Source of the DNA: an uncultured Verrucomicrobiota bacterium
GTDB taxonomy: Bacteria; Verrucomicrobiota; Verrucomicrobiia; Palsa-1439; CAYGDP01
Length of the DNA stretch: 64,000 nt
Direction: 5' to 3'
Assembly: GCA_964348665.1 (NCBI GenBank)
Contig: CAYGDP010000001.1
Location: 66,767-130,766, forward strand
In this document: piece after piece, positions 1,491 to 45,767 of the stretch
Numbering within the stretch: the stretch's first letter is position 1
Layout: each line of letters starts with the position of its first letter
Made by a program: the position numbers and the translations under genes
Notes under the pieces: generated by a model
The model's input: only the letters and a program-made list of their open reading frames with translations
Told to the model about the DNA's origin: nothing
Databases searched by the model: none

Positions 1491-2255
1491 ATGACCATGA
1501 TCGTGGCCGCCAGTTCGAAAGATCCAACCATTCTCGCAGTATTTCTGTTCGGCGGCGGTTTGTTTGGATTTTTCTGGGGATTGCGCGCCTACTCGCGAAA
1601 ACGTCTGATGCAAAACACTCCCACGTCCACCGTGGCTTCCGTCGCTCTCGGCCCCGCTGAATTGCAAGGCCGCGCCATCCCCCACGGAACGCCGATGACC
1701 AGTCCCATCATGCAAGCGCCATGTGTCTATTGGCGCTATACCGTTGAGGAGTACCGCAAAGGCAAGAAAAGTGGGCGATGGGTCACGATCGCTCGCGATG
1801 AACGGCGCGTGCCGTTTTTTGTCGAGGACGATACCGGGAAAATTCTCGTGGACTCCATGGGCGCGGAGATTGACATTCCACAAGACCTGCGCGAGCAAAC
1901 AGGCATGTTCGGAGGATTATCGGCGAACGCGCAGGTGTTTTGCAACCGGCAGGGCTACGGCACGGGGTTTTTCAGCCGCGACAAGCGTTTTACCGAATGG
2001 CATATCGCGCCGGACGACACCCTGTATGTGTTCGGCGCGGTCGTCGCCCCGGAAGGTCAGATGGCGGGCGTGACCAAGGTGGAAGACCGGCTCGTGCGAA
2101 GCGATCGCTCGTGCAGTTTCTTCTACATCGCCGACAAATCGGCTAAGGAAGTCGAGAGCGCCTACGCGTGGAAAGCCGCGGGCGGCATTTTCGGAGGCGG
2201 GCTTGTGGTGTTGGTTGGCCTGGGTATTTTATTGAATAAGTTTGGGATATTGTAG
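1491..2255 (+). CDS. LemA-associated membrane protein, paralog 1 of 4 (possible GIDE-domain family)
   Basis: N-terminal TM. Shares NTPTSTVASVALGPAELQGRAIP, PCVYW, FFVEDDTGKILV, GAVVAPEGQMAGVTKVEDRLVRSD and a C-terminal TM with the three downstream paralogs. Confidence 0.5.
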   Translation: MTMIVAASSKDPTILAVFLFGGGLFGFFWGLRAYSRKRLMQNTPTSTVASVALGPAELQGRAIPHGTPMTSPIMQAPCVYWRYTVEEYRKGKKSGRWVTIARDERRVPFFVEDDTGKILVDSMGAEIDIPQDLREQTGMFGGLSANAQVFCNRQGYGTGFFSRDKRFTEWHIAPDDTLYVFGAVVAPEGQMAGVTKVEDRLVRSDRSCSFFYIADKSAKEVESAYAWKAAGGIFGGGLVVLVGLGILLNKFGIL

Positions 2256-2257
2256 CA

Positions 2258-3274
2258 ATGGAATTTTATTACACTCTCTATATCAGTTTCTATTTGCTCA
2301 TGGGGTTGTTGTTTTTCATCTGCGGCCTGCGCAACTACGCGCGCAGCAAGCTGATCGCGAACACGCCCACGGCAAAGATTGGTTCGGTTGCGCTCGGCCT
2401 CGCCGAGCTGCGCGGACGCATTGTGCCGCGAAGCGGGATGGGTTGCCCCATTACCCGGCAACCCTGTCTGGGATGGAAAATAAGCATCGGAGGATCAAAA
2501 CGAATTCCCGGAAGGATTATGTGGGAAGAATTCTATTTCTCCTTCTTTCTGGAGGACGAATCGGGACGCATCCTGGTGGAGGCGAAAGGATTACAAGGAC
2601 CCGAATCCATGACTCAAATGTTTATGGAATCGTTTTCGACTCCCTCGGCATTCAGTCGCAAGGGTGAAACTCGGCTCTTCAATCTCCGCTTTCCCGACGA
2701 CAAGATCTTTTGGGTGGAGGAATGGCAGATGATTGCCCGCGACCGACCGAATGACATATTTGCGCAAGTGGTCGAGTGGACAAAAGAGCGTGGCGTTGAC
2801 ATCGTTACATTAGAGAGCCATCGCTGGGTGTCATTGGTAATTTACAAGGCGCTAGATAAACCCGAGGCCGAGCTTTACGTTCTTGGCACAGTGACAGCCG
2901 TGCCGGAACAATTGGCAGGCAAAACCAAGACCGAAGATCGTGTCGCGCGTAGCGACCCGCGAGATCGCCTTTTGCTGGTTTCGACCGAATCGCCAAAGCG
3001 AACGGGGCAAGCGCATTTCCAAAGAGCGGTTGCCCAACTTATTGCGACCGCGCTTTGCCTGTTGATGGCGGTTGGCGTCTTTTTGCCGCTCTTATCTCTC
3101 CAGGCGGTAGGGGTTTCTACGATCGCGTTGGTTGTCGGTACAATCATTTTAGGGCTTTTGAAGCGCCAAATAGACCCGGTTGCGAACCTCGTCATCGCCG
3201 CTATGTTTATTTTGGCCATAATTGCTCTTTGGGCAATCACCATGCTCGAAGGAATCGGTCGGGTATTGCGCTAA
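2258..3274 (+). CDS. LemA-associated membrane protein, paralog 2 of 4
   Basis: Same motif set (NTPTAKIGSVALGLAELRGRIVP, PCLGW, FFLEDESGRILV, GTVTAVPEQLAGKTKTEDRVARSDP). Two C-terminal TMs. Starts 3 nt after paralog 1. Confidence 0.55.
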   Translation: MEFYYTLYISFYLLMGLLFFICGLRNYARSKLIANTPTAKIGSVALGLAELRGRIVPRSGMGCPITRQPCLGWKISIGGSKRIPGRIMWEEFYFSFFLEDESGRILVEAKGLQGPESMTQMFMESFSTPSAFSRKGETRLFNLRFPDDKIFWVEEWQMIARDRPNDIFAQVVEWTKERGVDIVTLESHRWVSLVIYKALDKPEAELYVLGTVTAVPEQLAGKTKTEDRVARSDPRDRLLLVSTESPKRTGQAHFQRAVAQLIATALCLLMAVGVFLPLLSLQAVGVSTIALVVGTIILGLLKRQIDPVANLVIAAMFILAIIALWAITMLEGIGRVLR

Positions 3275-3318
3275 CCGGCAAGCGGTGGATTATCATCAAT
3301 TAGTTTGGCATACTACGG

Positions 3319-4377
3319 GTGATGGAATACGCCATGGTCATCTTCATCGGCCTCTGGTTTTTGCTCGGCCTGCCGTTTTTTCTGTTCGGCCTGCGGTCGT
3401 TGCGCTGGGCTTCTCTGATCAAAAACACGCCCACCGCCAAGATCGGCTCTGTCGCGATTGGCTTGGCCGAGTTGCATGGACGCGTCATCCCCAAGGAAGG
3501 AATGGTCAGCCCGATCACGCAAAAGCCTTGCCTTGGCTGGGAAGTGAGCATTTGCGAGGAAGGTCGCAGCGACGGGCAAGCCACTAGTTTCAATACCCTT
3601 TGGAAAGAATTGCGGTTCGAGTTCTATCTCGAAGACGAGTCCGGGAAAATTCTGGTTCAACTCGACCAAACTCGCGATTTCAACGACCTCCAGCAAGTCC
3701 TCTGGCAAACGTCCCAATATAGCGAGTTTCTCGATAAGAATCGGAACTCGGTGCGTCGGGAAGACATGAGTCTATGGGGCAAGCCAGAGTACGCGAGTTC
3801 TGGTCGCCAATATGATGATTTTACTCCGCAAGTGCTAGAGTTCGCCCAGCGTCAGGGCTTCGACTTGCGTGGTGGGAAGAAACGCAGGTGCATTTCGGTG
3901 AAGATGTACGAGAAAATCGTTGGCACCGACAGCGTGCTGGGCAGAAATACTTCGGGCTATACGTCGCTGGATGGCAATTATTATATCATGGGCACAGTGT
4001 TGGCCGCGCCGGAACAACTGGCGGGAAAAAACAAAATTGAAGACCGTGTTGTCCGCCGCGACCCGCAGAATCGCGTATTCGTCTTTGCGCCAATTCCTCC
4101 TAAACGGATGGAACGCACGCAACGGAATAAAGCCATCGCCCAATTTTGCGGCGCGGCGTTTTGCGGTCTCATGGGGCTGGGGATCTTTGCGCCGCATGTA
4201 GCAGCCGTTGTGGCGCTCTCGTATATCATTATCTTCTTTGGATCTGCCCTTGTCGGCGCACTCATTTTGAAACGCCAGCCTGAACCGGGCGTGTTACTGA
4301 TTGCCTTCCTGGTGTGTTTTCTGGCATTCTTTGCGCTCTTCACGTTTCAGGGCGCGCTCAATCAACTACTTCGATGA
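3319..4377 (+). CDS. LemA-associated membrane protein, paralog 3 of 4
   Basis: NTPTAKIGSVAIGLAELHGRVIP, PCLGWEV, FYLEDESGKILV, GTVLAAPEQLAGKNKIEDRVVRRDP. N- and C-terminal TMs. Confidence 0.55.
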   Translation: MMEYAMVIFIGLWFLLGLPFFLFGLRSLRWASLIKNTPTAKIGSVAIGLAELHGRVIPKEGMVSPITQKPCLGWEVSICEEGRSDGQATSFNTLWKELRFEFYLEDESGKILVQLDQTRDFNDLQQVLWQTSQYSEFLDKNRNSVRREDMSLWGKPEYASSGRQYDDFTPQVLEFAQRQGFDLRGGKKRRCISVKMYEKIVGTDSVLGRNTSGYTSLDGNYYIMGTVLAAPEQLAGKNKIEDRVVRRDPQNRVFVFAPIPPKRMERTQRNKAIAQFCGAAFCGLMGLGIFAPHVAAVVALSYIIIFFGSALVGALILKRQPEPGVLLIAFLVCFLAFFALFTFQGALNQLLR

Positions 4378-5249
4378 ACTTTGGCATCAACCTCCTCCTC
4401 GGCGTTGCAACCGCTCCTACCACGAGCGATGTGGTTCAGGCATGGATGACCATCGTTTTCGCTGCTGTCGGCGTGCTTGCGCTCGGTGTGGGACTGATCT
4501 TGTTTAATGGGACGATCAAAGACATTCACAAAGTCCGGCTCATTGCGGGAACCCCAACATCCACCATCCGCGCCGCCGCGCTCGGCTTGGTGGAACTCCA
4601 TGGCCGCGTCACACCACTGGAAAGTTTGGTCGCGCCGATCTCGAAGCAGCCTTGTGCCGCGTGGCGCTATTCTCTCTGGATTGGCCCCAAAGGTAAGCAG
4701 TCCGTCTGGACAGTCTCCAGCGAGAAAACCAATGTGCACCCGTTCTATCTCGAAGACGACACAGGTCGAGTGCTCGTGGATCCGCGTGACGGAAATTCAT
4801 TCCTAAGCTACGATGGCCAGCATCAGGAAGAACATACCGAACCGGTCGAGCTTCCCTACGAATTTGTCGCTTGGGCAAAACACAACCACATCAATTACGG
4901 CGCCGAAATCAAGCAGCCGTGGAGTGTCAATGTGCAATGGATCACCATCGGCACGCCCGCCTATGTATTGGGAACACTGTGCGCGGTGGAGGATAAGTTT
5001 TCTGGATTAGCCAAATCCGAAGACCGAGTCGTGCGGCGCGATCCGAAGGACAAAATTTTCCTCCTTTCCCGCTGTTCTCCGCGCGAGATGGAACTGGGTT
5101 CGCATCAGTTTTCCCGCAACGGCATCGTCATCAGTGCCTTGATTGCCATCGGCGGACTGGGGATGATCCTGATCGTAAGCAAGATTGCGGCGCTTTTCTT
5201 TCTTGCGCTATTCGCTCTGTTTGTGATTCCTACCATGCGGAGGTTATGA
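4374..5249 (+). CDS. LemA-associated membrane protein, paralog 4 of 4
   Basis: GTPTSTIRAAALGLVELHGRVTP, PCAAWRY, FYLEDDTGRVLV, GTLCAVEDKFSGLAKSEDRVVRRDP. Start chosen at MNFGIN, which overlaps the paralog-3 stop as ATGA. The track start at 4314 is also possible. Confidence 0.5.
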   Translation: MNFGINLLLGVATAPTTSDVVQAWMTIVFAAVGVLALGVGLILFNGTIKDIHKVRLIAGTPTSTIRAAALGLVELHGRVTPLESLVAPISKQPCAAWRYSLWIGPKGKQSVWTVSSEKTNVHPFYLEDDTGRVLVDPRDGNSFLSYDGQHQEEHTEPVELPYEFVAWAKHNHINYGAEIKQPWSVNVQWITIGTPAYVLGTLCAVEDKFSGLAKSEDRVVRRDPKDKIFLLSRCSPREMELGSHQFSRNGIVISALIAIGGLGMILIVSKIAALFFLALFALFVIPTMRRL

Positions 5250-5845
5250 ACAACGGCATCATGATTATTGTGTTGTTTGGCGCTGCTCTGGCGGCGATTG
5301 CGCTGCTGGTGTACGCGGTCACGCTCTACAACGGCCTCATCTATCTGCGTAACCAGATGGACAAGGCGTGGGCCAACATTGACGTGCTGCTCAAGCAACG
5401 CCACGATCTTATCCCCAATCTTGTCGAGACCGTCAAAGGCTACGCCACACACGAGCGCACCGTGTTCGAGAACGTCACTCGCGCCCGCACCGAGGCCATT
5501 ACACTCCAAGCACACGGCCGAACTGACGCGCCCCAGCTCGCGCAAGCCGAGGATTACATCTCGCGCACGATCAAATCCATTTTCGCCGTTGCGGAGGCCT
5601 ATCCCGTCCTGAAAGCCAACCAAAACTTTCTCGCCTTGCAGGAATCGCTCGTGCGCGTCGAAAACGAAGTTGCCGAGCGCCGCGAATTTTTCAACAACGC
5701 CGTCAACCTCTACAACGTCGCCATCCAGCGTCTCCCCGATGTTTTCGTCGCCCGTTTCCTCAATTTCCAGCCCGCTCTTTATTTCCGAGCCGAAGATGCC
5801 GAGCGGACGACCATCAGTGTTTCCTTCACGCCGCCCGCGAATTGA
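5246..5845 (+). CDS. lemA: LemA family protein
   Basis: N-terminal TM followed by NGLIYLRNQMDKAWANIDVLLKQRHDLIPNLVETVKGYATHER, the canonical LemA signature. ATGA overlap with the upstream paralog. Confidence 0.85.
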   Translation: MNNGIMIIVLFGAALAAIALLVYAVTLYNGLIYLRNQMDKAWANIDVLLKQRHDLIPNLVETVKGYATHERTVFENVTRARTEAITLQAHGRTDAPQLAQAEDYISRTIKSIFAVAEAYPVLKANQNFLALQESLVRVENEVAERREFFNNAVNLYNVAIQRLPDVFVARFLNFQPALYFRAEDAERTTISVSFTPPAN

Positions 5846-5859
5846 CGGCATGATTTGTT

Positions 5860-7167
5860 TCACCGCTCGACCGTGAAGGCGATATCCGTTCCCGGCAAAC
5901 ACACGCCACCTTTTTCCGCTCCACCGTCGTCTTTGCCAACCATGCTCGGATCATCCTCATCGCTGATGCTATAGGTCACAAAACCTCGTGCCAATTTTCT
6001 GTAGCGAATCGGCTGGCCATCGAACGGATCCGTCGGAACTGCCGTTAGAAAACGCGGGACAAGTTCATCTAGTTTTTCGGGCAGCTTGCCATTCGCAAGT
6101 CGATACCGCTCGACGGCGATCCCAGCCTGCGCGGCGCGGGCTGTCGCGGATGCTCGCGCATCGCGCAGAGCCCAAGCGATTGTCATCTCGGCCGCCTTGC
6201 GCCACACATTAACCGCTGGAAGTGATTTCTTTAGCTTCGCTTCCGCCTTCAAAATCTCCTGCAAACTTTTGGGCAACGGCAGTTTACTGGCGGCGATGCA
6301 CTCTTCTATGAAAGTCAGAAAGATGATGTAATGCTCGTTCGAGTATTCGGGCATTGGACTGGAGGTTTTATCATGCGCCGAAATCGCTACCCACATCCCC
6401 TTCGCATACTCTCTTGGCTTGGAGATGATTTCGCAGCGATCGCTCACCAGTATTCGAATGACAGCCTCACGGTCGTCTGCAACCGCGACGACGTTAGCAA
6501 GTCTTTTTAGCTCCTCTTCGGAAACCTGCGTGCGATTCAAAAGCCGCTCAACACTGGAAATCATAATCCAGACACAAGCATTGTGGACGAGGCTCGGGAT
6601 CACTCCCGGCTCGTTGGCTAACGAGCGACTGACTGCCGCCGATGTCTGCACCGATTCCACCGCTGTGGAAGTTAGGCCTTGCTCGGCGAGCACGATGGTT
6701 TCAAGGCTAAGCAGTCTTGCGCAAGCGCGCACAGGCGGAAAGGGAGTGGGAATACCATTTACCATCACCCACGGGTAACGGCACTCGCTCTTTGTCGCCG
6801 CCTGACGCAGCAACGTGAGCGTCTGCCGGTGCGCGGTCAAGTAAGTGAAACACGCCTGCATCATTTCCGGAGGCAACCGCTCCGTGCGCGGCGGTAGTTT
6901 AACCCATCCGTCCACCGGAATGCGTTCCCGCAGTTTTTCGTCTCTCGGCGGAAAACTCGAAAACGCCGCCTTATACAGATCCGCGGCGTTATTTTCGGGT
7001 TTCACCTGCGGATACCACTGCTCCAATTCCGCCATCGTCACGGGATAACCCTCTTTCCGAATCGCATCCAGCTTGGATTGGATTTGCTCGTCAAGCGACT
7101 GGCTGCGGACGGCGCAAGCCGTAACCATCCACAAACACGCTGCGCCTATGAGCCGAACCTGCTGCAT
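5860..7167 (-). CDS. secreted hypothetical protein (signal peptide; C-terminal pseudopilin-like motif)
   Basis: N-terminal signal peptide MQQVRLIGAACLWMVTACAV. The C-terminus VPTDPFDGQPIRYRK...GGVCLPGTDIAF resembles the GspG-type pseudopilin C-terminal motif. Confidence 0.45.
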   Translation of the reverse strand: MQQVRLIGAACLWMVTACAVRSQSLDEQIQSKLDAIRKEGYPVTMAELEQWYPQVKPENNAADLYKAAFSSFPPRDEKLRERIPVDGWVKLPPRTERLPPEMMQACFTYLTAHRQTLTLLRQAATKSECRYPWVMVNGIPTPFPPVRACARLLSLETIVLAEQGLTSTAVESVQTSAAVSRSLANEPGVIPSLVHNACVWIMISSVERLLNRTQVSEEELKRLANVVAVADDREAVIRILVSDRCEIISKPREYAKGMWVAISAHDKTSSPMPEYSNEHYIIFLTFIEECIAASKLPLPKSLQEILKAEAKLKKSLPAVNVWRKAAEMTIAWALRDARASATARAAQAGIAVERYRLANGKLPEKLDELVPRFLTAVPTDPFDGQPIRYRKLARGFVTYSISDEDDPSMVGKDDGGAEKGGVCLPGTDIAFTVER

Positions 7168-21714: not shown

Positions 21715-23241
21715 TTAGGAGGCGGCGCCGTTGGCGGAAAACGCGGTTAAGGCATCAGAAATTAGAGCGGCGACCCTTTCAGGATGCCAGTCAGGATAGA
21801 AGGCGCGAATCTTTCCTTCGAGGTCAGCGGGGGAGGTGCTGGCCAAAATCATTTGACGCACAGGCGCAAGGCTTCCGCGGAAGGCTCGCGCCAGCTCTGC
21901 CTTACCAGCGCGAGCTATTTCATCGTTCGCCTTCAAAGCTGGCGGTAAAGCTGCGCTCAAAGGCATCATTCCGGCGAACGGAATTTGTGGGACCGGAGCC
22001 TTCCTCTGAAGCGGGAACCCGACACGCTCACTCAAGGTTGGCAGAGCTTCATCGGTAGGCTCGATTCCCGCCGCTGAAATTTTTGCCAATAAATCCCCGG
22101 TCGCCGCTGCCTGTTTGGCAGACTCCGCACCCCAAACAGCCCGGGGCGCACGCCCGATACCCCCATTGATTTTTACCAGTTGATCGAAGAGCTGGTCTTT
22201 CAAAGTCTCGCCAAGCATCTTCCCATCAAACTGGCGAATATCCTCTCGCACGTTCTCCTGTCCAGTCGCGACGCCACTACCAAGTCCGGTACTTTGCGCC
22301 TCACTGGAAAGTGTTTGGCCAACGATCAACTTGGATTTCTCCCTATTACAGATCGAGTGGAATTTCTCGAACGCCTCACCGCTTGATGCGGCCAATGCCT
22401 GCATGATCTCGATTTCGGTTTCGTTCGTTACAACCAAGCCACCGATCCTAGTGGACAAAGCAAACGCACGCTCCAACGTCGTGCGGCTCGCATCATCGGC
22501 CGCGTCATATTTCCCCACCATGAACGGTGCGCCGTACCTTTCCAGAAACCGACCCCACCAATCGCGATCCATCGCCGACAACAGCCACCAAAACAAAATG
22601 GATCGCATCGGTCCACCCCAATTATCCGCCGTAGTGAGCAAATGCCCGCGATGGATGATGTACCGATTGGGATCCGGCTCGTGTTTCGTCGCCAGAATAC
22701 GCCCCTCGGCATCCGTATCACGAATCATCATCACGCCGGATGTGTAATCGAGAAGATCGTAAGGCACTGGCACAAGCTCGCCGATCTCATACTTCACGCC
22801 CTTCATCGTGCTGGGACGAAACACCTTCTCCAAAAGCGCCGATGGCCACAACGTCGAATCCAATAAATGAGAACATGCCTTTATCCAGCCCGACGAATTG
22901 CCCACCAAATTCGTCACCAAACTGCCCGCCTTCACGTCATCATCGTTCTCCTTGTCATGCGGCACGATTGCCATTGGATCACCCAACACCGCAAGCTTAC
23001 GCTTGGCAAATTCCCCCTGGGTGTGGGCATCACTCAAAATTACGTCTCGATACAAAGCGAACAACTGCTGCGTATCGCCCGACTCCGCAGCCCGCAAAAT
23101 TCCGTGCAACCGATCCGCCGTAATCGTCGGCGCCACCGCGCTCAGTTGGTAGCGCTGATTAAAAGTTGTCACCCGCGTCGTCGGCACCTGTGCCGCCGCG
23201 ATCCGCTTCACCGATTCATTCACTTCATTATCTTCAGACAT
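21715..23241 (-). CDS. phage portal protein (Mu gp29-like, DUF935)
   Basis: 508 aa. Sits immediately downstream of the terminase genes. Size and overall character match Mu gp29. Confidence 0.7.
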   Translation of the reverse strand: MSEDNEVNESVKRIAAAQVPTTRVTTFNQRYQLSAVAPTITADRLHGILRAAESGDTQQLFALYRDVILSDAHTQGEFAKRKLAVLGDPMAIVPHDKENDDDVKAGSLVTNLVGNSSGWIKACSHLLDSTLWPSALLEKVFRPSTMKGVKYEIGELVPVPYDLLDYTSGVMMIRDTDAEGRILATKHEPDPNRYIIHRGHLLTTADNWGGPMRSILFWWLLSAMDRDWWGRFLERYGAPFMVGKYDAADDASRTTLERAFALSTRIGGLVVTNETEIEIMQALAASSGEAFEKFHSICNREKSKLIVGQTLSSEAQSTGLGSGVATGQENVREDIRQFDGKMLGETLKDQLFDQLVKINGGIGRAPRAVWGAESAKQAAATGDLLAKISAAGIEPTDEALPTLSERVGFPLQRKAPVPQIPFAGMMPLSAALPPALKANDEIARAGKAELARAFRGSLAPVRQMILASTSPADLEGKIRAFYPDWHPERVAALISDALTAFSANGAAS

Positions 23242-26420: not shown

Positions 26421-26497
26421 TGGTAGCGGGAGTCGGATTTGAACCGACGATCTTTAGGTTATGGGCCTAACGAGATTCCAGGCTTCTCCATCCCGCA
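26421..26497 (-). tRNA. tRNA with CAU anticodon (Met/Ile2-like), phage-encoded
   Basis: Cloverleaf: acceptor 6 bp plus a U1xU72 mismatch, D-stem GAGA/UCUC with GG in the loop, anticodon stem UUAGG/CCUAA, loop CCCAUAA (C33 instead of U33), T-stem GUCGG/CCGAC with loop UUCAAAU, discriminator A and encoded CCA. Confidence 0.6.
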
Positions 26498-34586: not shown

Positions 34587-35395
34587 ACGCCAACGGAAAA
34601 ATTCAACACATCAACCCAGAACTTCTTGTTCCGCATCCTTTGACTGAACTCGTACCGATGACGGCGGAGGATGAATCCCAAAATGTCGCGTTAATCGAGA
34701 GCATTCGGGAGCGCGGAATTGACCAGGCAATCTTGGCGGACGCCAGCTATAAAATCCTCGATGGCCGCCATCGGCATCGCGCGGCGAAGACTCTAAAACT
34801 CGCCACTGTGCCGGTTGTAATCCGAGAGGAAACCGAGGCCGCGAGCATCATCTTGGATTCCCTTCTTGCCCGCCGTCACTTTACCAAAAGCGCGCTGGCC
34901 TACATCGCGTTACCGCTCTACGACAAAGCCGCCGCTGAGGGGCGACAGCGTAGGACGGGAGCTAAGCCGAGTGGCTCGGCTTTCGCTATGAAAGCGAGTG
35001 ATTTTTCAACCCGTTTAGGCATCTCAAAAGACACCTTTGAACAAGCTCGCGATGTTCGAGAATTGTTCGCCAAACGCCCTGATTTGAAGGCTGAATTTGA
35101 GCCCAAAATTTTTAGCGGGGATATGAGCCTCTGGAATGTTCGTAGCGCAGCGGGCGGTCGCGACAAAACCAAAGGCGTCGCCCGCAAAGACAGCCAGCGC
35201 ACCTTTGAAGATCTGGTCGGCGATTGGATCGAGCTAGGCGTTCATCGCCTCAAACATTGGGAGAAAATCGGCAGTAAAGCCGATCGGCTCAAACTAACCC
35301 ACAAAGCTGCCGATGCGCTTGTTGGCGCTTTCCCCGACGAATGGTTGCCGGCATTGGAACGCGCGATCCGTGCGCGAAAAGGAGAGACGCGATGA
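34583..35395 (+). CDS. ParB-like nuclease domain protein
   Basis: ILDGRHRHRAA (ParB/sulfiredoxin DGxHR motif). Confidence 0.6.
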   Translation: MNANGKIQHINPELLVPHPLTELVPMTAEDESQNVALIESIRERGIDQAILADASYKILDGRHRHRAAKTLKLATVPVVIREETEAASIILDSLLARRHFTKSALAYIALPLYDKAAAEGRQRRTGAKPSGSAFAMKASDFSTRLGISKDTFEQARDVRELFAKRPDLKAEFEPKIFSGDMSLWNVRSAAGGRDKTKGVARKDSQRTFEDLVGDWIELGVHRLKHWEKIGSKADRLKLTHKAADALVGAFPDEWLPALERAIRARKGETR

Positions 35396-37194
35396 CTGAT
35401 ACACAAACCCGCGAACTGACGCGACGCAATCAAATCGTGTGCGCCGCCATCCCTCTGTTGAATCAGGGCGGCAGCTATGCAGCCGTCGCGCGCAGGCTCG
35501 GCGAGAATAAAGTCTCGCTATATCGGTGGGTATCGGTATTTCGAAAAGGCGGCGATGCGGCGCTTATCCCTCAATCCACCAACAGCGGGCGCAAAGCGGA
35601 CTTCAATCTGACCGACGACGAAGCCGCCGCTCTGCGATATTGGCGGCTGGTGCGCGGCAGCCTGGCCTCGGCGATTCCCGATTTCACGCAGTCGCGCGAG
35701 TGCCGCCCCGAGACGCGCGCGAAAATCCTCGCCATCCAGGACCGTGCCGCGCGCGATCGCCGTATTCCCAACTGGCCGATGTCGCTCCGGCGCGCGGGTC
35801 ATGTAACCGCCGATGATGAAGCCTTGTTCCGCGGCTGCAAACATTTTCAGGAGGTCGAGTTTTGCCAGCGGCGCGGCAACTTCATCGTGGATGAAGCGGG
35901 CAACCAGATCGAACTCGCCCCAAACACGATTTGGGAATCGGACGATATGTCCGTCAACGAACCGTTTTCCTACGTGGATGCCGACACCGGCGAGACCAAA
36001 CTCGGTCGCCAAACTCTTTGGACGCAGGATGTCTATAGCGCCAAATGGATCGGCACGACTCCATTGGGCCGCGCCAAGGACGCCTATCGCGTCGAGGATA
36101 TCGCTGACCACATTTTCAACTGCGTGCTTCAATTCGGGCTGCCGACCATCTGGCGTATCGAGCGCGGCGTGTGGGACAACAACTGGGTGGACGGCTTTGA
36201 GCTGCCCGATGGCTCCCGTTGGGGCGGCCTCGATGCGCTGATGCGCATCCAAAAGGTTTTCAAATCACGCGGCAAAGGCGGCATCGAATCTAACTTCAAT
36301 CTCCTCCAAACCATCAACGCCCACAAATCCACCAGCATTGGTCGCAGCCGGAGCGAGTTCGAGGCCGCCACAAAACTTTTCCTGTCCGCCCAAAAAGGAA
36401 ACACGGAGGCCGCCGCGAAATTCTGGAACATTGCCGAGTGTGCCGATGGCCTGCTCGAAACCGCTCGCGCGGCGGATGCCCGCGCCAAACAACGCCGTGC
36501 CTTCGGACGCGATGTCGTAGTTCCCAACGATCTTTACGCCGCGGCAACCAAACGGGAAATTCCAGCCGATCAATTGTGGCGATTCTGCCCCATCAAGCGC
36601 TCGGCCACTGTGCGCGGAGGTCACGTCGAGGTCAGCGTCAATCATTATCCCCTGCCGTTCCGATTTCGCGTCAACGGCGTTGAGGATCTGCACCTAGAAC
36701 AAGGCTATGCGGTGTTGATTGCGTTCCATCCCGGGCGCGCCCACGAGGGCTGCCACGTTTTCAGCGCCGAGACCGGCAGCCGGAACCGATTCGGTCTCAA
36801 ATTTAGCGAGAAGATTTTGCTCGCCCCGATGGCCGAGGATGCCCCGCAGATTTCCATGAGCCGTGATGAGCAGCAATTTCTGGCCCGGCGCAAAGCCAAC
36901 GCGGCGGCGCGCACCGAGTTCCGCGCCATCGTAGCGGCAGGTACGCGCGGCCGACGCGAATCCATCGCGCGCGATTCCTACGGCAACACGCAGCGGATCG
37001 AGACCCAACAGATTTCGGGGGCGAGCGGGCCGCAAACTGACCGTTTGCAAAATGCGCCCACAAGTGCCGCCCCCGTTATTTCCGCGCCACGCCGCCGCGC
37101 GACGCCAGAATACGACGAGGCGGAGACGCGCAATCGCATCAAGGAAAACGAAGACGCCCTGCGCGAGCAAGGTGTCGTGATCGAAGAATCGTAA
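35392..37194 (+). CDS. Mu-type DDE transposase (MuA-like)
   Basis: 600 aa. N-terminal HTH region, central DDE core (WESDDMS...), Mu-transposase-like C-terminal domain. Follows the repressor and Cro/Ner-like gene, as in Mu. Confidence 0.7.
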   Translation: MTDTQTRELTRRNQIVCAAIPLLNQGGSYAAVARRLGENKVSLYRWVSVFRKGGDAALIPQSTNSGRKADFNLTDDEAAALRYWRLVRGSLASAIPDFTQSRECRPETRAKILAIQDRAARDRRIPNWPMSLRRAGHVTADDEALFRGCKHFQEVEFCQRRGNFIVDEAGNQIELAPNTIWESDDMSVNEPFSYVDADTGETKLGRQTLWTQDVYSAKWIGTTPLGRAKDAYRVEDIADHIFNCVLQFGLPTIWRIERGVWDNNWVDGFELPDGSRWGGLDALMRIQKVFKSRGKGGIESNFNLLQTINAHKSTSIGRSRSEFEAATKLFLSAQKGNTEAAAKFWNIAECADGLLETARAADARAKQRRAFGRDVVVPNDLYAAATKREIPADQLWRFCPIKRSATVRGGHVEVSVNHYPLPFRFRVNGVEDLHLEQGYAVLIAFHPGRAHEGCHVFSAETGSRNRFGLKFSEKILLAPMAEDAPQISMSRDEQQFLARRKANAAARTEFRAIVAAGTRGRRESIARDSYGNTQRIETQQISGASGPQTDRLQNAPTSAAPVISAPRRRATPEYDEAETRNRIKENEDALREQGVVIEES

Positions 37195-37213
37195 ACACAA
37201 AATCAAGGAGACC

Positions 37214-38419
37214 ATGAGCAAGACAACTGAAGCAGTGAAGATGGGCTGGTGGATGCCGACCAAAATGGCTGGCGTTCGCGCTGTACATCATTACGCGACG
37301 GCAGATCGCGGAGCGGCCTGCGGGAAATGGATTTACCACGGCGATGGCGGTGATCTAGTGGCAGACCAACCCGATAAAGCCTGCCCTAATTGCCTAACAG
37401 CATTGAGTCGCGATAAAAAACCGAACCTCCCAATGCCGCCCACCGAAGGCGAGTATGGCGATCTCGATACCGAGATCCGGGAGTTGACACAATTCATCTA
37501 CGCTTATCAAACGACCGAAGACCTCAGCGACAACGCGTTGGTGAAAAAGTTCCCCGGACTCGGCAGCACGAAGACGTGGACAAAGTTCCTGTCTGGAAAC
37601 ATCGTCGAACTCAACGTCCCTAAATGGATCGTCGAGTATCGCCAAGTTCGCGAGCAGATTGTCGCGCTCCAAACGCGCAGCAAAGACAACGAACCGATTT
37701 ACGACGATCTCAGCGGCTTCATGCGGTTACGCGGCGCCTTCACCGAGGCGCTCCGCGAAGACGGTAACAATCGCCTGATCATCGTTCAAGGACCATCGGG
37801 CAGCGGCAAGACGACGGCGGTGAAGTTGTTGGCGCAGAAATTTGGGCGGCGGATTATTTTCTGCGAGGCCGACGAGACTTGGAAAGAATCGCTGCGCGCC
37901 ATGATGGGCGGCATCCTCAACGCCGTCGGCATCGAGCAGACGCCGCTACAACTCCGCGACTGTGAACGCAAAGTCATCGAGCGATTGTCGGCGCCGCGCG
38001 TTTGTCTGGTGATTGACGAAGCCCATCACCTCGGCCCGCGCACGCTGAACCTCGTCAAGACGATCATCAACCAAACGCCAGGCGAAATCATTTTGCTGGC
38101 GATGGACACGCTTCAGGCGCGTCTCGAATCGAGCGCGTATTTCGAGGCAATGCAGTTGGTCCACAACCGTCTGCTCGAACGCATCCGCCTCGACCGCCTC
38201 GAAGCCGACGACGTGGAGAAAATTCTCAAGCGCCGCCTCACGTGGGAAAATGGAGATTTACACAAAGCCGCCACCGCGTTGCGCGATCAAGCCGTGCGGC
38301 GCGGCCATCTGGCCTTCGTCAAACTCGTCGTGCGCCGCGCCGCACGCCTGGCCGATGGCGACCCGATGACACTCGAAGTTTTTGTGAAGGCCATGAGCCA
38401 GACTATTGATAAACGCTAA
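37214..38419 (+). CDS. MuB-like AAA+ transposition ATPase with N-terminal zinc ribbon
   Basis: Walker A GPSGSGKTT, Walker B LVIDEAHHL. N-terminal C-x5-C...CPNC zinc ribbon. Directly downstream of the transposase. Confidence 0.7.
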   Translation: MSKTTEAVKMGWWMPTKMAGVRAVHHYATADRGAACGKWIYHGDGGDLVADQPDKACPNCLTALSRDKKPNLPMPPTEGEYGDLDTEIRELTQFIYAYQTTEDLSDNALVKKFPGLGSTKTWTKFLSGNIVELNVPKWIVEYRQVREQIVALQTRSKDNEPIYDDLSGFMRLRGAFTEALREDGNNRLIIVQGPSGSGKTTAVKLLAQKFGRRIIFCEADETWKESLRAMMGGILNAVGIEQTPLQLRDCERKVIERLSAPRVCLVIDEAHHLGPRTLNLVKTIINQTPGEIILLAMDTLQARLESSAYFEAMQLVHNRLLERIRLDRLEADDVEKILKRRLTWENGDLHKAATALRDQAVRRGHLAFVKLVVRRAARLADGDPMTLEVFVKAMSQTIDKR

Positions 38420-43955: not shown

Positions 43956-44203
43956 GCGAATCAAAAACAGGCTGGTGGAACCCGACGCCTTTTCGGGACA
44001 ACCCACGATTCCATTATGTAACTGATGATGGCCGAACGCTTTGCGGCAAATGGGCATACATTGGCATGGGCGATGTCGAGGAGGGACGCGACGGTCACTC
44101 CGAAAATTGTGTCGCCTGCAAAAAGAAAAAGCTGGCGCTGAATGCCCGCGCCAAAAACCCCCGCCACGTGGAACTACCGGTCAAGGAATTAACCAATGGC
44201 TGA
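43952..44203 (+). CDS. zinc-ribbon protein paralogous to the MuB N-terminal domain
   Basis: TGWWNPTPF...DGRTLCGKWAYIG...ENCVACKKK versus MuB MGWWMPTKM...RGAACGKWIYHGD...KACPNC. Confidence 0.4.
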   Translation: MSESKTGWWNPTPFRDNPRFHYVTDDGRTLCGKWAYIGMGDVEEGRDGHSENCVACKKKKLALNARAKNPRHVELPVKELTNG

Positions 44204-45767
44204 ATTTCTTTTCGGACCTGTGCCGCACGAAGAGGCGATCAAGTTCATCGCCGATAAACCCGTTGTCTCGCGCGAGGTTTTCAACAAGCTTCTACCCGAG
44301 CTGAAGGCGCGGGCGTTTACCATCAGCGGCATCGAGGGCGCGAACGCGATGCAGAGTATCCGCGACAAGATCGCCGAGCTGCCCGCAGGCGGCGATTGGG
44401 ACACGATCAAGCAACAAATCGCCGATGACCTCGCCAATGAAGGTCTATTCGATAATCCTGATGCCGACGAGGAATCGCGTGCGGCCAGCGCCGAGGCCGC
44501 CGAGCGCCGTGCCGAAATTCTTTTGCGCACCCACGGATTCCAAGCCTACAGCGCCGCGCGATTCAACGTGATGAATCGGCAGAAAGATGCCCTGCCGTTT
44601 TGGAAATATCAAACCGTTGGTGATGAACATGTGCGCGATGAACACGCCGCGCTCGATGGCGTCATTCTTCCCGCCGATTCGCCCTTTTGGAACGATCATT
44701 ATCCGCCATGGGATTGGGGCTGCCGATGTTTGGTCGTGCCGCTCGATGCCGAGGAAGTCGCCGAGATTCGCGAGGCGGAAAAGGATTTGGATGGCGACAA
44801 GCGATCGCTACTCGAAGGCGAGTTACAGCGCCAGCTAGAAGTCAACGGGCGAATCGCGCGCGGTCCTACGCAAGTCGTTGACGTGCGCAGTCCGCGCGAC
44901 AAAGGCGTGGAAGCGCCATTTGTTTGGCAGCCAGGCAATTTGCGCGTGCCGATCCAAAAGCTTCGCGGCCAATGGGATGCCCCTGTTTTTGATAGCTTCG
45001 AGCAGTGGGCTAAACGTCAGATCGTAAATGAACGCGATCAAACCGTTTGGAATTGGCTGAATCAAAAGCAACGCCCGCCGCTGGCAACGCGCGATTCATT
45101 GCGCAGCGAGGATGTGAAGCGTAAACATCGCGGGGCAATCTCCCAGGGAGTATCGCGCTCGGACAAGATCACATTGGAAGATGGTACTGTCGCTGTCCGA
45201 AAACCAATCGAAGGTTTGGGGTACGAAGATTTTTTGGAGGGGCCTCTATTTCATAAAGATTCCAGCAGAAACGGGGCTGCCTTTCAAATCGCCGCCGATG
45301 ATATTTCGCGCGCGCTGGGCTGGGAGGTTGTGGCGCCAGCATCCATCAATAAGGATGGATCTGAATTACGAACGGCTTTTACCGAAGGTGTGGCACTCCA
45401 TTCGTCACCGCGATCTGAAATCGATCGTCAACAATGGGAGCGGGTGGCGTTCATTGATTATGTAATCGGACAGCAGGATGGCCATAGCGGAAATTACTTG
45501 GTCACTGCGGATGGCAAGTTGGTTGGGTTCGATCTGAATATCGCCGGTGGTGAGCGATTCCGCAGTACGGCGTTGGAAGAGATCAGTCGTGAGACAGACG
45601 AGGGTGGCGTCGCTAAATTTAGCAGGAAAACCGTGAATGAGGTCGAGCGCAAGCTTGACAAGATCGCATTTCGAGAGGAAGTTTCTACGGAGCTTCAGGA
45701 CAAACTTTTGGGGCGGATCAAGGAGTTTTTAGATTCCGATGGTGAGATAAACTGGGAGTTCAAATGA
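44196..45767 (+). CDS. Mu F-like minor head protein (gp30) fused to a C-terminal PI3K/PI4K-like kinase motif
   Basis: Phage_Mu_F motif KYQTVGDEHVRDEHAALDGVI. The C-terminal VIGQQDGHSGNYLVTADGKLVGFDLN matches the lipid-kinase catalytic loop GDRHxxN and the DFG-like activation segment. Confidence 0.65.
   Translation: MAEFLFGPVPHEEAIKFIADKPVVSREVFNKLLPELKARAFTISGIEGANAMQSIRDKIAELPAGGDWDTIKQQIADDLANEGLFDNPDADEESRAASAEAAERRAEILLRTHGFQAYSAARFNVMNRQKDALPFWKYQTVGDEHVRDEHAALDGVILPADSPFWNDHYPPWDWGCRCLVVPLDAEEVAEIREAEKDLDGDKRSLLEGELQRQLEVNGRIARGPTQVVDVRSPRDKGVEAPFVWQPGNLRVPIQKLRGQWDAPVFDSFEQWAKRQIVNERDQTVWNWLNQKQRPPLATRDSLRSEDVKRKHRGAISQGVSRSDKITLEDGTVAVRKPIEGLGYEDFLEGPLFHKDSSRNGAAFQIAADDISRALGWEVVAPASINKDGSELRTAFTEGVALHSSPRSEIDRQQWERVAFIDYVIGQQDGHSGNYLVTADGKLVGFDLNIAGGERFRSTALEEISRETDEGGVAKFSRKTVNEVERKLDKIAFREEVSTELQDKLLGRIKEFLDSDGEINWEFK

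Follow-up and report, generated by a model that had tools for sequence, protein, structure and literature searches.

Four diverged GIDE (BAM) paralogs precede a single lemA gene in a Verrucomicrobiia bacterium

What are the four related membrane proteins encoded directly upstream of one lemA gene, where did the extra copies come from, and what might a single LemA do with several of them? The GIDE/BAM and LemA families, to which the products are assigned below, are both widespread and have no established function in prokaryotes (PMC4457424; PMC3905215), and in the human mitochondrial ligase MUL1/MAPL the BAM domain is the half that still lacks an explanation. Our literature search found no paper linking GIDE with LemA, and the relevant GIDE paper (PMC4457424) does not mention LemA. 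In the window, the whole 64,000-nt stretch of DNA analysed here, an earlier note had placed four paralogous membrane proteins followed by LemA at 1491-5845, and the five ORFs were found there as follows.

1491..2255, plus strand: G1, 254 aa; ancestral-type GIDE/BAM protein with a TM helix, a predicted OB-like beta-barrel and a TM helix
2258..3274, plus strand: G2, 338 aa; diverged GIDE paralog with a barrel insert of ~40 aa (low-confidence prediction) and three C-terminal TM helices
3275..3333, plus strand: G2-G3 intergenic spacer, read from the sequence; 44 nt (G3 from GTG 3319) or 59 nt (G3 from ATG 3334)
3334..4377, plus strand: G3, diverged GIDE paralog; 347 aa from ATG 3334, or 352 aa from GTG 3319
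4374..5249, plus strand: G4, GIDE paralog, 291 aa from ATG; two C-terminal TM segments
5246..5845, plus strand: LemA, 199 aa; final gene of the unit, encoding an N-terminal TM helix and then a four-helix-bundle domain

The genes are closely packed, but the translational coupling that had been proposed for the whole unit applies to only part of it. The G1/G2 junction (a gap of 2 nt, not 3) and the G4/LemA junction (an ATGA overlap read at 5246-5249, with a GGAGG that precedes the LemA ATG by 3 nt) fit the proposal. G2 and G3 are not coupled, because 44-59 nt lie between them; this spacer is the sole clear interruption of the gene-to-gene packing and leaves room for separate regulation. At the G3/G4 junction, the ATGA overlap read at 4374-4377 is valid only with ATG 4374 as the true G4 start; an alternative start at ATG 4446, which aligns with the starts of the other three paralogs, would turn the overlap into a 68-nt gap, and the mechanical ORF of G4 runs from GTG 4314 (311 aa). 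For G3, the 347-aa start was picked by gene callers on identical metagenome contigs; over 1491-5845, the three metagenome contigs with this locus show 100% identity. A convergent ORF (5860-7167, minus strand, 435 aa) closes the unit after LemA. The promoter and terminator scan was not better than shuffled controls; it gave no operon boundaries and no such site in the G2-G3 spacer. The flanking genes are of the housekeeping type; a Wzy_C/O-antigen-ligase-like protein with TPR repeats (Pfam) is encoded next to the array on its upstream side but is not kept in related loci. The array is carried by a soil or peat bacterium, and the window also contains a Mu-like prophage, whose genes are more than 15 kb from the array.

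All four paralogs belong to the GIDE/BAM family (PF12483). G1 passes the Pfam cutoff of 23.6 with 47.6 bits, G4 falls slightly under it (20.8 bits, E=2.8e-4), and G2 and G3 are not matched by Pfam directly; NCBIfam gave no match for any of the four. A profile built solely from PF12483-annotated proteins not of the window detected all of them at 116-292 bits (G2 116, G3 117, G4 167), in agreement with the earlier suggestion that the LemA partners are of the GIDE type. By BLASTP, the four are 27-37% identical to one another with E-values of 1e-23 to 1e-69 (G2-G4 against G1, 1e-23 to 1e-31; G2 against G1, 6e-31; G2 against G3, 8e-61, at 36-37% identity), a similarity that places their paralogy far above chance. 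The motifs that had been reported as common to them (NTPTxKIGSVALGLAELxGR, PCLGW, FxLEDESGxILV, and GTVxAxPEQLAGKxKxEDRVxRxDP) are among the 38 invariant columns of the G1-G4 alignment, and are exact in G2 and G3 but only approximate in G1 and G4. All four copies also keep the seven invariant columns of an alignment of 29 family members (G54, E57, G60, P72, D113, G116, and G182).

The fifth gene encodes a canonical LemA, as had been claimed. The protein scores 171.1 bits against PF04011 (E=1.8e-50; cutoff 26.2), matches PDB 2ETD (E=6.3e-30 over residues 29-187), and has one N-terminal hydrophobic segment (1-34) in a 19-residue hydropathy scan. Its score against the MamQ model NF040966, 92.9 bits, is below the equivalog cutoff of 250, and it is thus a generic LemA. 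We surveyed 160 loci, consisting of 80 species-representative loci from GTDB (the best 80 matches) and 80 metagenome loci; the scan was seeded with the four-paralog alignment, because the variability of the diverse 29-sequence alignment was too high for this purpose. A lemA gene adjoins the GIDE gene in 71 of the 80 GTDB loci, or 71/74 of the evaluable ones, as a contig end cuts six of the other nine, and in 44 of the 80 metagenome loci, the remainder being mostly short contigs. The linkage of GIDE and lemA genes is near-obligate. In the window, G4 and lemA are adjacent on the same strand and overlap by 4 nt, and the ATGA overlap between GIDE and lemA is also found in relatives. Of the ORFs on either side of lemA in the window, none matched TPM (PF04536); these neighbours are the GIDE paralogs and the 435-aa convergent ORF, which is unassigned.

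That LemA is usually paired with a single GIDE gene, as the earlier note held, is borne out among the relatives, since all of the distinct related Verrucomicrobiia loci examined (12/12) contain one GIDE gene and lemA. The single-GIDE module of Verrucomicrobiia MAGs (for example DATIZX010000136.1, loci L004-L014) resembles the window in its families, in gene order, and in the ATGA into lemA, whereas in the window G1 is separated from lemA by three additional paralogs that are strongly diverged; G2 and G3 each contain a barrel insert and have three TM helices at the C-terminus, and G4 has two there. G1 is 60-62% and LemA 63-69% identical to the proteins of these relatives (BLASTP); on this similarity, G1 and LemA are the orthologues of their GIDE and LemA. 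Searches for G2-G4 covered about 15 billion proteins, where no orthologue turned up, and 1.84 billion cluster representatives, where they had no close relative; a single-sequence word-indexed search with G2 returned only G2, G3, and two weak matches. The additional copies are particular to this lineage. In a neighbor-joining (NJ) tree, G2-G4 branch beside the verrucomicrobial G1 clade, with G2 and G3 as sisters. Because their branches are long, this placement may reflect long-branch attraction. The branching beside the verrucomicrobial clade together with the missing orthologues suggests that G2-G4 arose by local duplication as lineage-specific tandem copies. The copies are old and diverged, as had been proposed, and not a recent duplication, judging from their 27-37% identity and the NJ tree.

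How exceptional is the array? At least two GIDE copies are present in about 10% of the 160 surveyed loci. Among the 80 species-representative loci, 12 have at least two copies and four have 3-5; the only loci of the 160 with at least three copies are four archaeal ones (L015 with five; L068, L039, and L048 with three each), and no other bacterium in the sample has a four-copy array. These DPANN and other archaeal arrays resemble the window in having tandem GIDE paralogs on one strand with a single lemA and in retaining non-equivalent copies. The archaeal and bacterial arrays are independent expansions, as they fall in separate clades of the tree, and some of the archaeal arrays, unlike the window, have a GIDE copy downstream of lemA. 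The Micrarchaeota copies form position-specific paralog clades conserved across genomes (NJ tree); these paralog sets are ancient and common to several genomes, whereas the extra copies of the window are limited to one bacterial lineage. In addition, ten separate 50%-identity clusters of 742-825 aa (P0113, P0126, P0231, and seven others) fuse GIDE-GIDE-LemA in one chain. Like the window, the fusions have more than one GIDE module per LemA domain, with GIDE first and LemA last, but they are single polypeptides containing two modules and a soluble linker of ~120 aa instead of four separate genes. The presence of several GIDE modules per LemA recurs independently, namely in fused proteins, in DPANN archaea, and in the present bacterium. 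The earlier note had called a four-fold expansion of the partner unusual unless operons with several paralogs proved common; they are recurrent yet uncommon, so that this objection applies in part, and within the sample the four-fold expansion stays unusual for a bacterium. The GIDE-LemA pair was already known, GIDE at four diverged copies is rare in bacteria with precedents in archaea and fusions, and the array is a lineage-specific elaboration of a known module, not a new kind of system.

Hydropathy and AF2 models place TM helices on both sides of the GIDE domain. G1 has hydrophobic helices at 12-41 and 218-250, and G2 has a helix at 2-34 plus three C-terminal helices (AF2 model pLDDT 75.6). 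The number of C-terminal TM helices is one, three, three, and two in G1 to G4, respectively, and therefore the architecture, which had been described as shared, is similar but not identical; the N-terminal TM helix and the domain are common to all four, and a barrel insert is common to G2 and G3. Among PDB sequences, a profile search detected no GIDE protein of solved structure; the modelled barrel is of the OB-fold class.

We consider that the locus is best explained as a whole by a duplicated GIDE-LemA module forming a hetero-oligomer on the membrane's cytoplasmic face, a reading in which we have moderate confidence. The ancestral G1 of this inner-membrane module would have been joined by tandem duplicates, G4 and then G2/G3, inserted before lemA. 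Each GIDE protein would be an OB-fold-like barrel anchored to the membrane through flanking TM helices, one on either side, with extra C-terminal helices in G2-G4, and LemA would be a membrane-anchored four-helix bundle. The ten GIDE-GIDE-LemA fusion clusters suggest that GIDE and LemA associate physically, and the position-specific clades of Micrarchaeota and the seven kept residues suggest a non-redundant use of several subunits. Thus, four non-equivalent GIDE subunits and one LemA species may bind each other in a hetero-oligomeric scaffold at the membrane surface, which probably serves membrane or envelope organisation rather than ubiquitin ligation.

The NfeD-SPFH (stomatin/flotillin) operons, in which the gene for a membrane-anchored OB-fold protein lies beside, and often overlaps, the gene for a membrane-anchored helical scaffold, offer a functional analogy for such a scaffold. 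Only the OB-fold class is common to NfeD and GIDE; the GIDE barrel has a membrane tether at each end, LemA has a four-helix bundle and not an SPFH domain, and no Pfam match to NfeD or SPFH/Band-7 was found at E<=1.

It is possible, though we regard it as rather unlikely, that the paralogs are alternative, subfunctionalised partners, each forming its own complex with LemA under other conditions or with other ligands, and that no mixed hetero-oligomer exists. The copies indeed vary in their barrel inserts and in how many C-terminal TM helices they have, the gap before G3 could permit separate regulation, and family members elsewhere carry EF-hand or Zn ribbons as accessory sensor-like modules, which suggests that the barrel is an adaptable input module. 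However, three of the four junctions are tight (the 2-nt gap and two ATGA overlaps, one of them dependent on the G4 start), favouring co-translation, and the fusions impose two GIDE modules per LemA in one molecule.

The cytoplasmic location of the preferred hetero-oligomer is suggested by a conserved basic stretch after the first TM helix (R-x-x-x-RKR in G1, RKRLI in the family consensus). There, 3-5 Lys/Arg residues are found in G1, P0079, and both modules of P0113 and P0231, and two in G2-G4, which by the positive-inside rule argues against a reversed topology with periplasmic OB-like domains. The same holds for the Cys4 Zn-ribbon fusions, in which an even number of TM helices, two, lies between the GIDE domain and the Zn ribbons. 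Two TM helices also separate GIDE-2 from the LemA domain in the GIDE-GIDE-LemA fusions, and an AF3 model places a mycobacterial LemA-like domain on the cytoplasmic face (preprint 10.64898/2026.07.15.738315). If the topology were reversed, the domains would sense or bind an envelope component, in analogy to periplasmic OB proteins of the YgiW/BOF type, and LemA would signal or scaffold from the same or the other side. An older prediction placed the C-terminal domain of LemA outside the cell (PMC3905215), the BAM domain of MUL1 lies in the intermembrane space (PMC4457424), and the TM count of the fusions implies that their two GIDE modules are on opposite sides of the membrane, which conflicts with a simple all-cytoplasmic picture. 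The upstream Wzy_C protein would also fit such a topology, but it is not kept in the relatives' loci. On balance, we judge the reversed arrangement improbable.

That G2-G4 are redundant or decaying leftovers of duplication without a role of their own is more doubtful still. Their long branches, the missing orthologues, and the failure of G2 and G3 to reach Pfam detection would be expected of such leftovers, but all three are intact full-length ORFs that keep the family-invariant residues, the TM helices, and the gene packing, and 27-37% identity means survival far beyond that of usual neutral duplicates. A ubiquitin-ligase-like or anti-phage conflict system, which the Pfam family name 'E3 ubiquitin ligase', the fast divergence of the tandem paralogs, and the prophage might recall, is hardly credible and was rejected, because Pfam found no RING or other ligase domain in G1-G4, none of the five proteins matched a PADLOC-DB 2.0 family at E<=1, and the flanks are of the housekeeping type with the prophage genes >15 kb off.

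The eukaryotic E3 ligase MUL1/MAPL/GIDE has a homologous BAM/GIDE domain between two TM helices, as in the window (PF12483; PMC4457424). The proteins of the window lack its C-terminal RING, their chains ending inside or shortly after the last TM helix, and no ubiquitin/SUMO ligase activity of the MUL1/MAPL type is therefore expected of them; prokaryotic BAM/GIDE proteins generally have no RING domain (PMC4457424). The eukaryotic proteins, in turn, have no LemA partner, and in them the domain is exposed to the intermembrane space; for the prokaryotic domain, a cytoplasmic position is predicted. Within the preferred hetero-oligomer reading, we suggest only tentatively that the four GIDE proteins and LemA form a defined machine at the membrane surface, a scaffold or membrane-shaping device whose logic would resemble that of SPFH-NfeD and whose role would be related to that of MamQ in the formation of magnetosome membranes. 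Since more than one GIDE per LemA is implied by the locus as well as by the fusions, such a machine would, if real, offer a direct route to the ancestral BAM function of MUL1/MAPL. The recurrence of multi-GIDE arrangements gives the hypothesis of a hetero-oligomeric membrane-face complex a concrete form and provides natural constructs for testing it, and the near-obligate linkage and the OB-fold class of the barrel are usable for work on either family. The GIDE family itself comprised 5,390 clusters at 50% identity in our profile search.

Five genes on one strand, G1 to G4 and lemA, form the unit studied here (ORF listing), with flanking genes as follows.

27-1460, + strand, Wzy_C/O-antigen-ligase-like membrane protein with C-terminal TPR repeats (Pfam), 30 nt upstream of G1
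1491-2255, + strand, G1, 254 aa
2258-3274, + strand, G2, 338 aa
3319 or 3334 to 4377, + strand, G3, 352 or 347 aa
4374-5249, + strand, G4, 291 aa counted from ATG
5246-5845, + strand, LemA, 199 aa
5860-7167, - strand, convergent ORF of 435 aa, closing the unit

G1-G4 were alignable end to end with 38 invariant columns in the four-paralog alignment, and their pairwise identity was 27-37% (BLASTP, E = 1e-23 to 1e-69). These results and the ORFs uphold the observation, made in an earlier note from the sequence alone, of four paralogs followed by LemA at 1491-5845. The shared motifs described there are genuine and exact in G2 and G3, but merely approximate in G1 and G4. The gene junctions described there are right only in part: G4/LemA share an ATGA overlap preceded by GGAGG, and G1/G2 are 2 nt apart, but a gap of 44-59 nt separates G2/G3, and the ATGA overlap of G3/G4 requires ATG 4374 as the G4 start, whereas the alternative ATG 4446 coincides in the alignment with residue 1 of the other paralogs. 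Base composition across the region is even, and a promoter/terminator scan gave no information. The stops of lemA and the convergent ORF are 14 nt apart; the latter matched no Pfam family, and its product has an N-terminal hydrophobic, signal-like segment. The Wzy_C-TPR gene extends past the window start (582-592 aa on metagenome contigs) and was not kept in the related GIDE-LemA loci examined.

LemA is a canonical family member by sequence comparison (171 bits to PF04011; E = 6e-30 to PDB 2ETD, the known LemA structure). Its assignment as MamQ, a LemA relative required for magnetosome membrane formation, was rejected by the NCBIfam search. In the Pfam search suggested by the earlier note, G1 matched the GIDE (BAM) domain PF12483 with 47.6 bits, above threshold; G4 fell slightly under the threshold, and G2 and G3 were undetected by this profile. 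A profile built solely from PF12483-annotated homologues from outside the window gave 292 bits for G1, 167 for G4, 117 for G3, and 116 for G2; therefore, all four paralogs are GIDE family members. The Pfam label 'E3 ubiquitin ligase' is inapplicable to G1-G4, which have no RING domain, and prokaryotic BAM proteins generally lack it (PMC4457424). No defence-system signature was found at the G1-LemA locus.

The confident AF2 model of G1 (pLDDT 92.8) shows a long TM helix (12-41) and a second TM helix (218-250) on either side of a beta-barrel, which contains a single helix (145-154). In the model of G2 (pLDDT 75.6), the barrel is retained with three TM helices at the C-terminal end, and a low-confidence insert (119-160) lies between core strands 3 and 4, the position where OB-folds usually vary. 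By hydropathy, G1 has one C-terminal TM segment; the hydrophobic tails of the others are broader and read as three in G2 and G3 and two in G4. Foldseek and sequence searches found no solved GIDE structure.

The 4.4-kb array was 100% identical on three metagenome contigs, and G1 orthologues in Verrucomicrobiia MAGs showed 50-67% identity. In agreement with the single GIDE/TPM-type partner that the earlier note gave as classical for LemA, one GIDE gene overlapped lemA in all 12 distinct related loci examined, namely seven Verrucomicrobia-like metagenome contigs (L090-L096) and five species representatives (L010-L014). When all 1.84 billion cluster representatives were searched with a profile, 5,390 GIDE family clusters were obtained, among which the nearest relatives of G2, G3, and G4 were one another, followed by a G1 orthologue at 1e-65 and then others at 1e-41. 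In a neighbor-joining (NJ) tree of 100 GIDE domains, G2 and G3 were sisters joined by G4, and this trio adjoined the verrucomicrobial G1 clade with long branches. The simplest reading of these sequence relationships, with the long branches as a caveat, is that G2-G4 probably arose by local tandem duplication and then diverged rapidly.

With our own HMMs, we counted GIDE and LemA ORFs in 160 loci, 80 from GTDB species representatives and 80 from metagenomes, a set skewed towards sequences closest to G1. LemA adjoined GIDE in 71/80 GTDB loci; among the nine exceptions, six were truncated at the contig edge, and the other three (L058, L078, L085) had room yet no LemA. At least two GIDE genes were present in 12/80 GTDB loci and at least three in 4/80, archaeal in every case (five in L015; three each in L039, L048, and L068). 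The bacterial maximum there was two, in Omnitrophota (L026, L066) and Elusimicrobia (L086); about five metagenome loci had two copies and none had more. The largest arrays seen elsewhere were L015 (194-4348, Euryarchaeota MAG CAIYYO010000162.1), with four GIDE ORFs before lemA (the first of 108 aa) and one after, and L068 (7749-11087, archaeon DeMMO3_13), with three tandem GIDE genes upstream of lemA. Micrarchaeota GIDE copies formed position-specific paralog clades that recur across genomes (NJ tree). Ten distinct clusters (P0113, P0126, P0129, P0142, P0148, P0189, P0204, P0216, P0228, P0231) are GIDE-GIDE-LemA single-chain fusions, 742-825 aa long, whose modules are joined by a soluble linker of some 120 aa. 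The archaeal arrays, fusions, Micrarchaeota clades, and two-copy loci show that multiple GIDE modules for one LemA are a recurrent and independently evolved arrangement. The earlier interpretation of a four-fold expansion as unusual is supported in part: within this sample, skewed towards G1-like sequences, a bacterial array of four genes is the extreme case, but multiplicity itself recurs.

Several variants were also observed. Terriglobia MAGs L025 (8823-10065) and L056 (8813-9975) show the reverse expansion, one GIDE followed by two tandem lemA genes, and lemA lies 5' of the GIDE gene(s) in L024 (Omnitrophota), L079 (Marinimicrobia), and L086 (Elusimicrobia) MAGs. Accessory modules of the family include an EF-hand within the GIDE barrel of P0025 and P0046 and, in Terriglobales members such as P0139, a low-complexity insertion some 180 aa long.

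A basic stretch after TM1 is conserved (family consensus RKRLIxNTPT), with 3-5 Lys/Arg just past TM1 in G1, P0079, and both modules of P0113 and P0231, and two in G2-G4. In P0076 and P0079, a pair of TFIIB-type Zn ribbons at the N-terminus is followed by two TM helices and then the GIDE domain, which would therefore lie on the Zn-ribbon side, the cytoplasm. GIDE-2 and the LemA domain of the fusions would share a face, as two TM helices come between them. An AF3 model puts a mycobacterial LemA-like domain, a proposed scaffold, at the cytoplasmic face (preprint 10.64898/2026.07.15.738315). From these four observations, we propose that the OB-like barrels, tethered at both ends, and the LemA bundle would assemble at the cytoplasmic surface of the membrane into a complex in which the four GIDE paralogs would be non-equivalent subunits. 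Two points count against an all-cytoplasmic picture: the LemA domain is extracellular in an older prediction (PMC3905215), and the fusions have two helices from GIDE-1 to the linker and one from the linker to GIDE-2, which, if these counts hold, puts their two GIDE modules on opposite membrane sides.

Bacteria, archaea, and eukaryotes all carry the BAM/GIDE domain, which has no known function in prokaryotes (PMC4457424); our literature search found no paper connecting the GIDE and LemA families. The locus is an expanded new version of a known, uncharacterised two-gene GIDE-LemA module, not a new system type. The OB-fold assignment, the near-obligate linkage, and the fusions make the hypothesis of a physical complex directly testable.

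The window also contains a tRNA gene and, more than 15 kb away from the array, Mu-like prophage genes.

21715-23241 (- strand), 35341-38419 (+ strand), and 44196-45767 (+ strand), Mu-like prophage genes (Portal_Mu, E = 1.7e-61; Phage_Mu_F, E = 1.9e-17)
37214-38419, + strand, AAA_22 ATPase
26421-26497, - strand, tRNA-Met (CAT)

The ATPase directly follows a 617-aa ORF without an assigned family, and the two may be a MuA/MuB-like transposition pair. The tRNA-Met, the sole tRNA gene and sole Rfam match within the window, sits between Mu-like gene matches (21.7-23.2 kb and 35-46 kb) and could be either the mark of an integration site or part of the phage.
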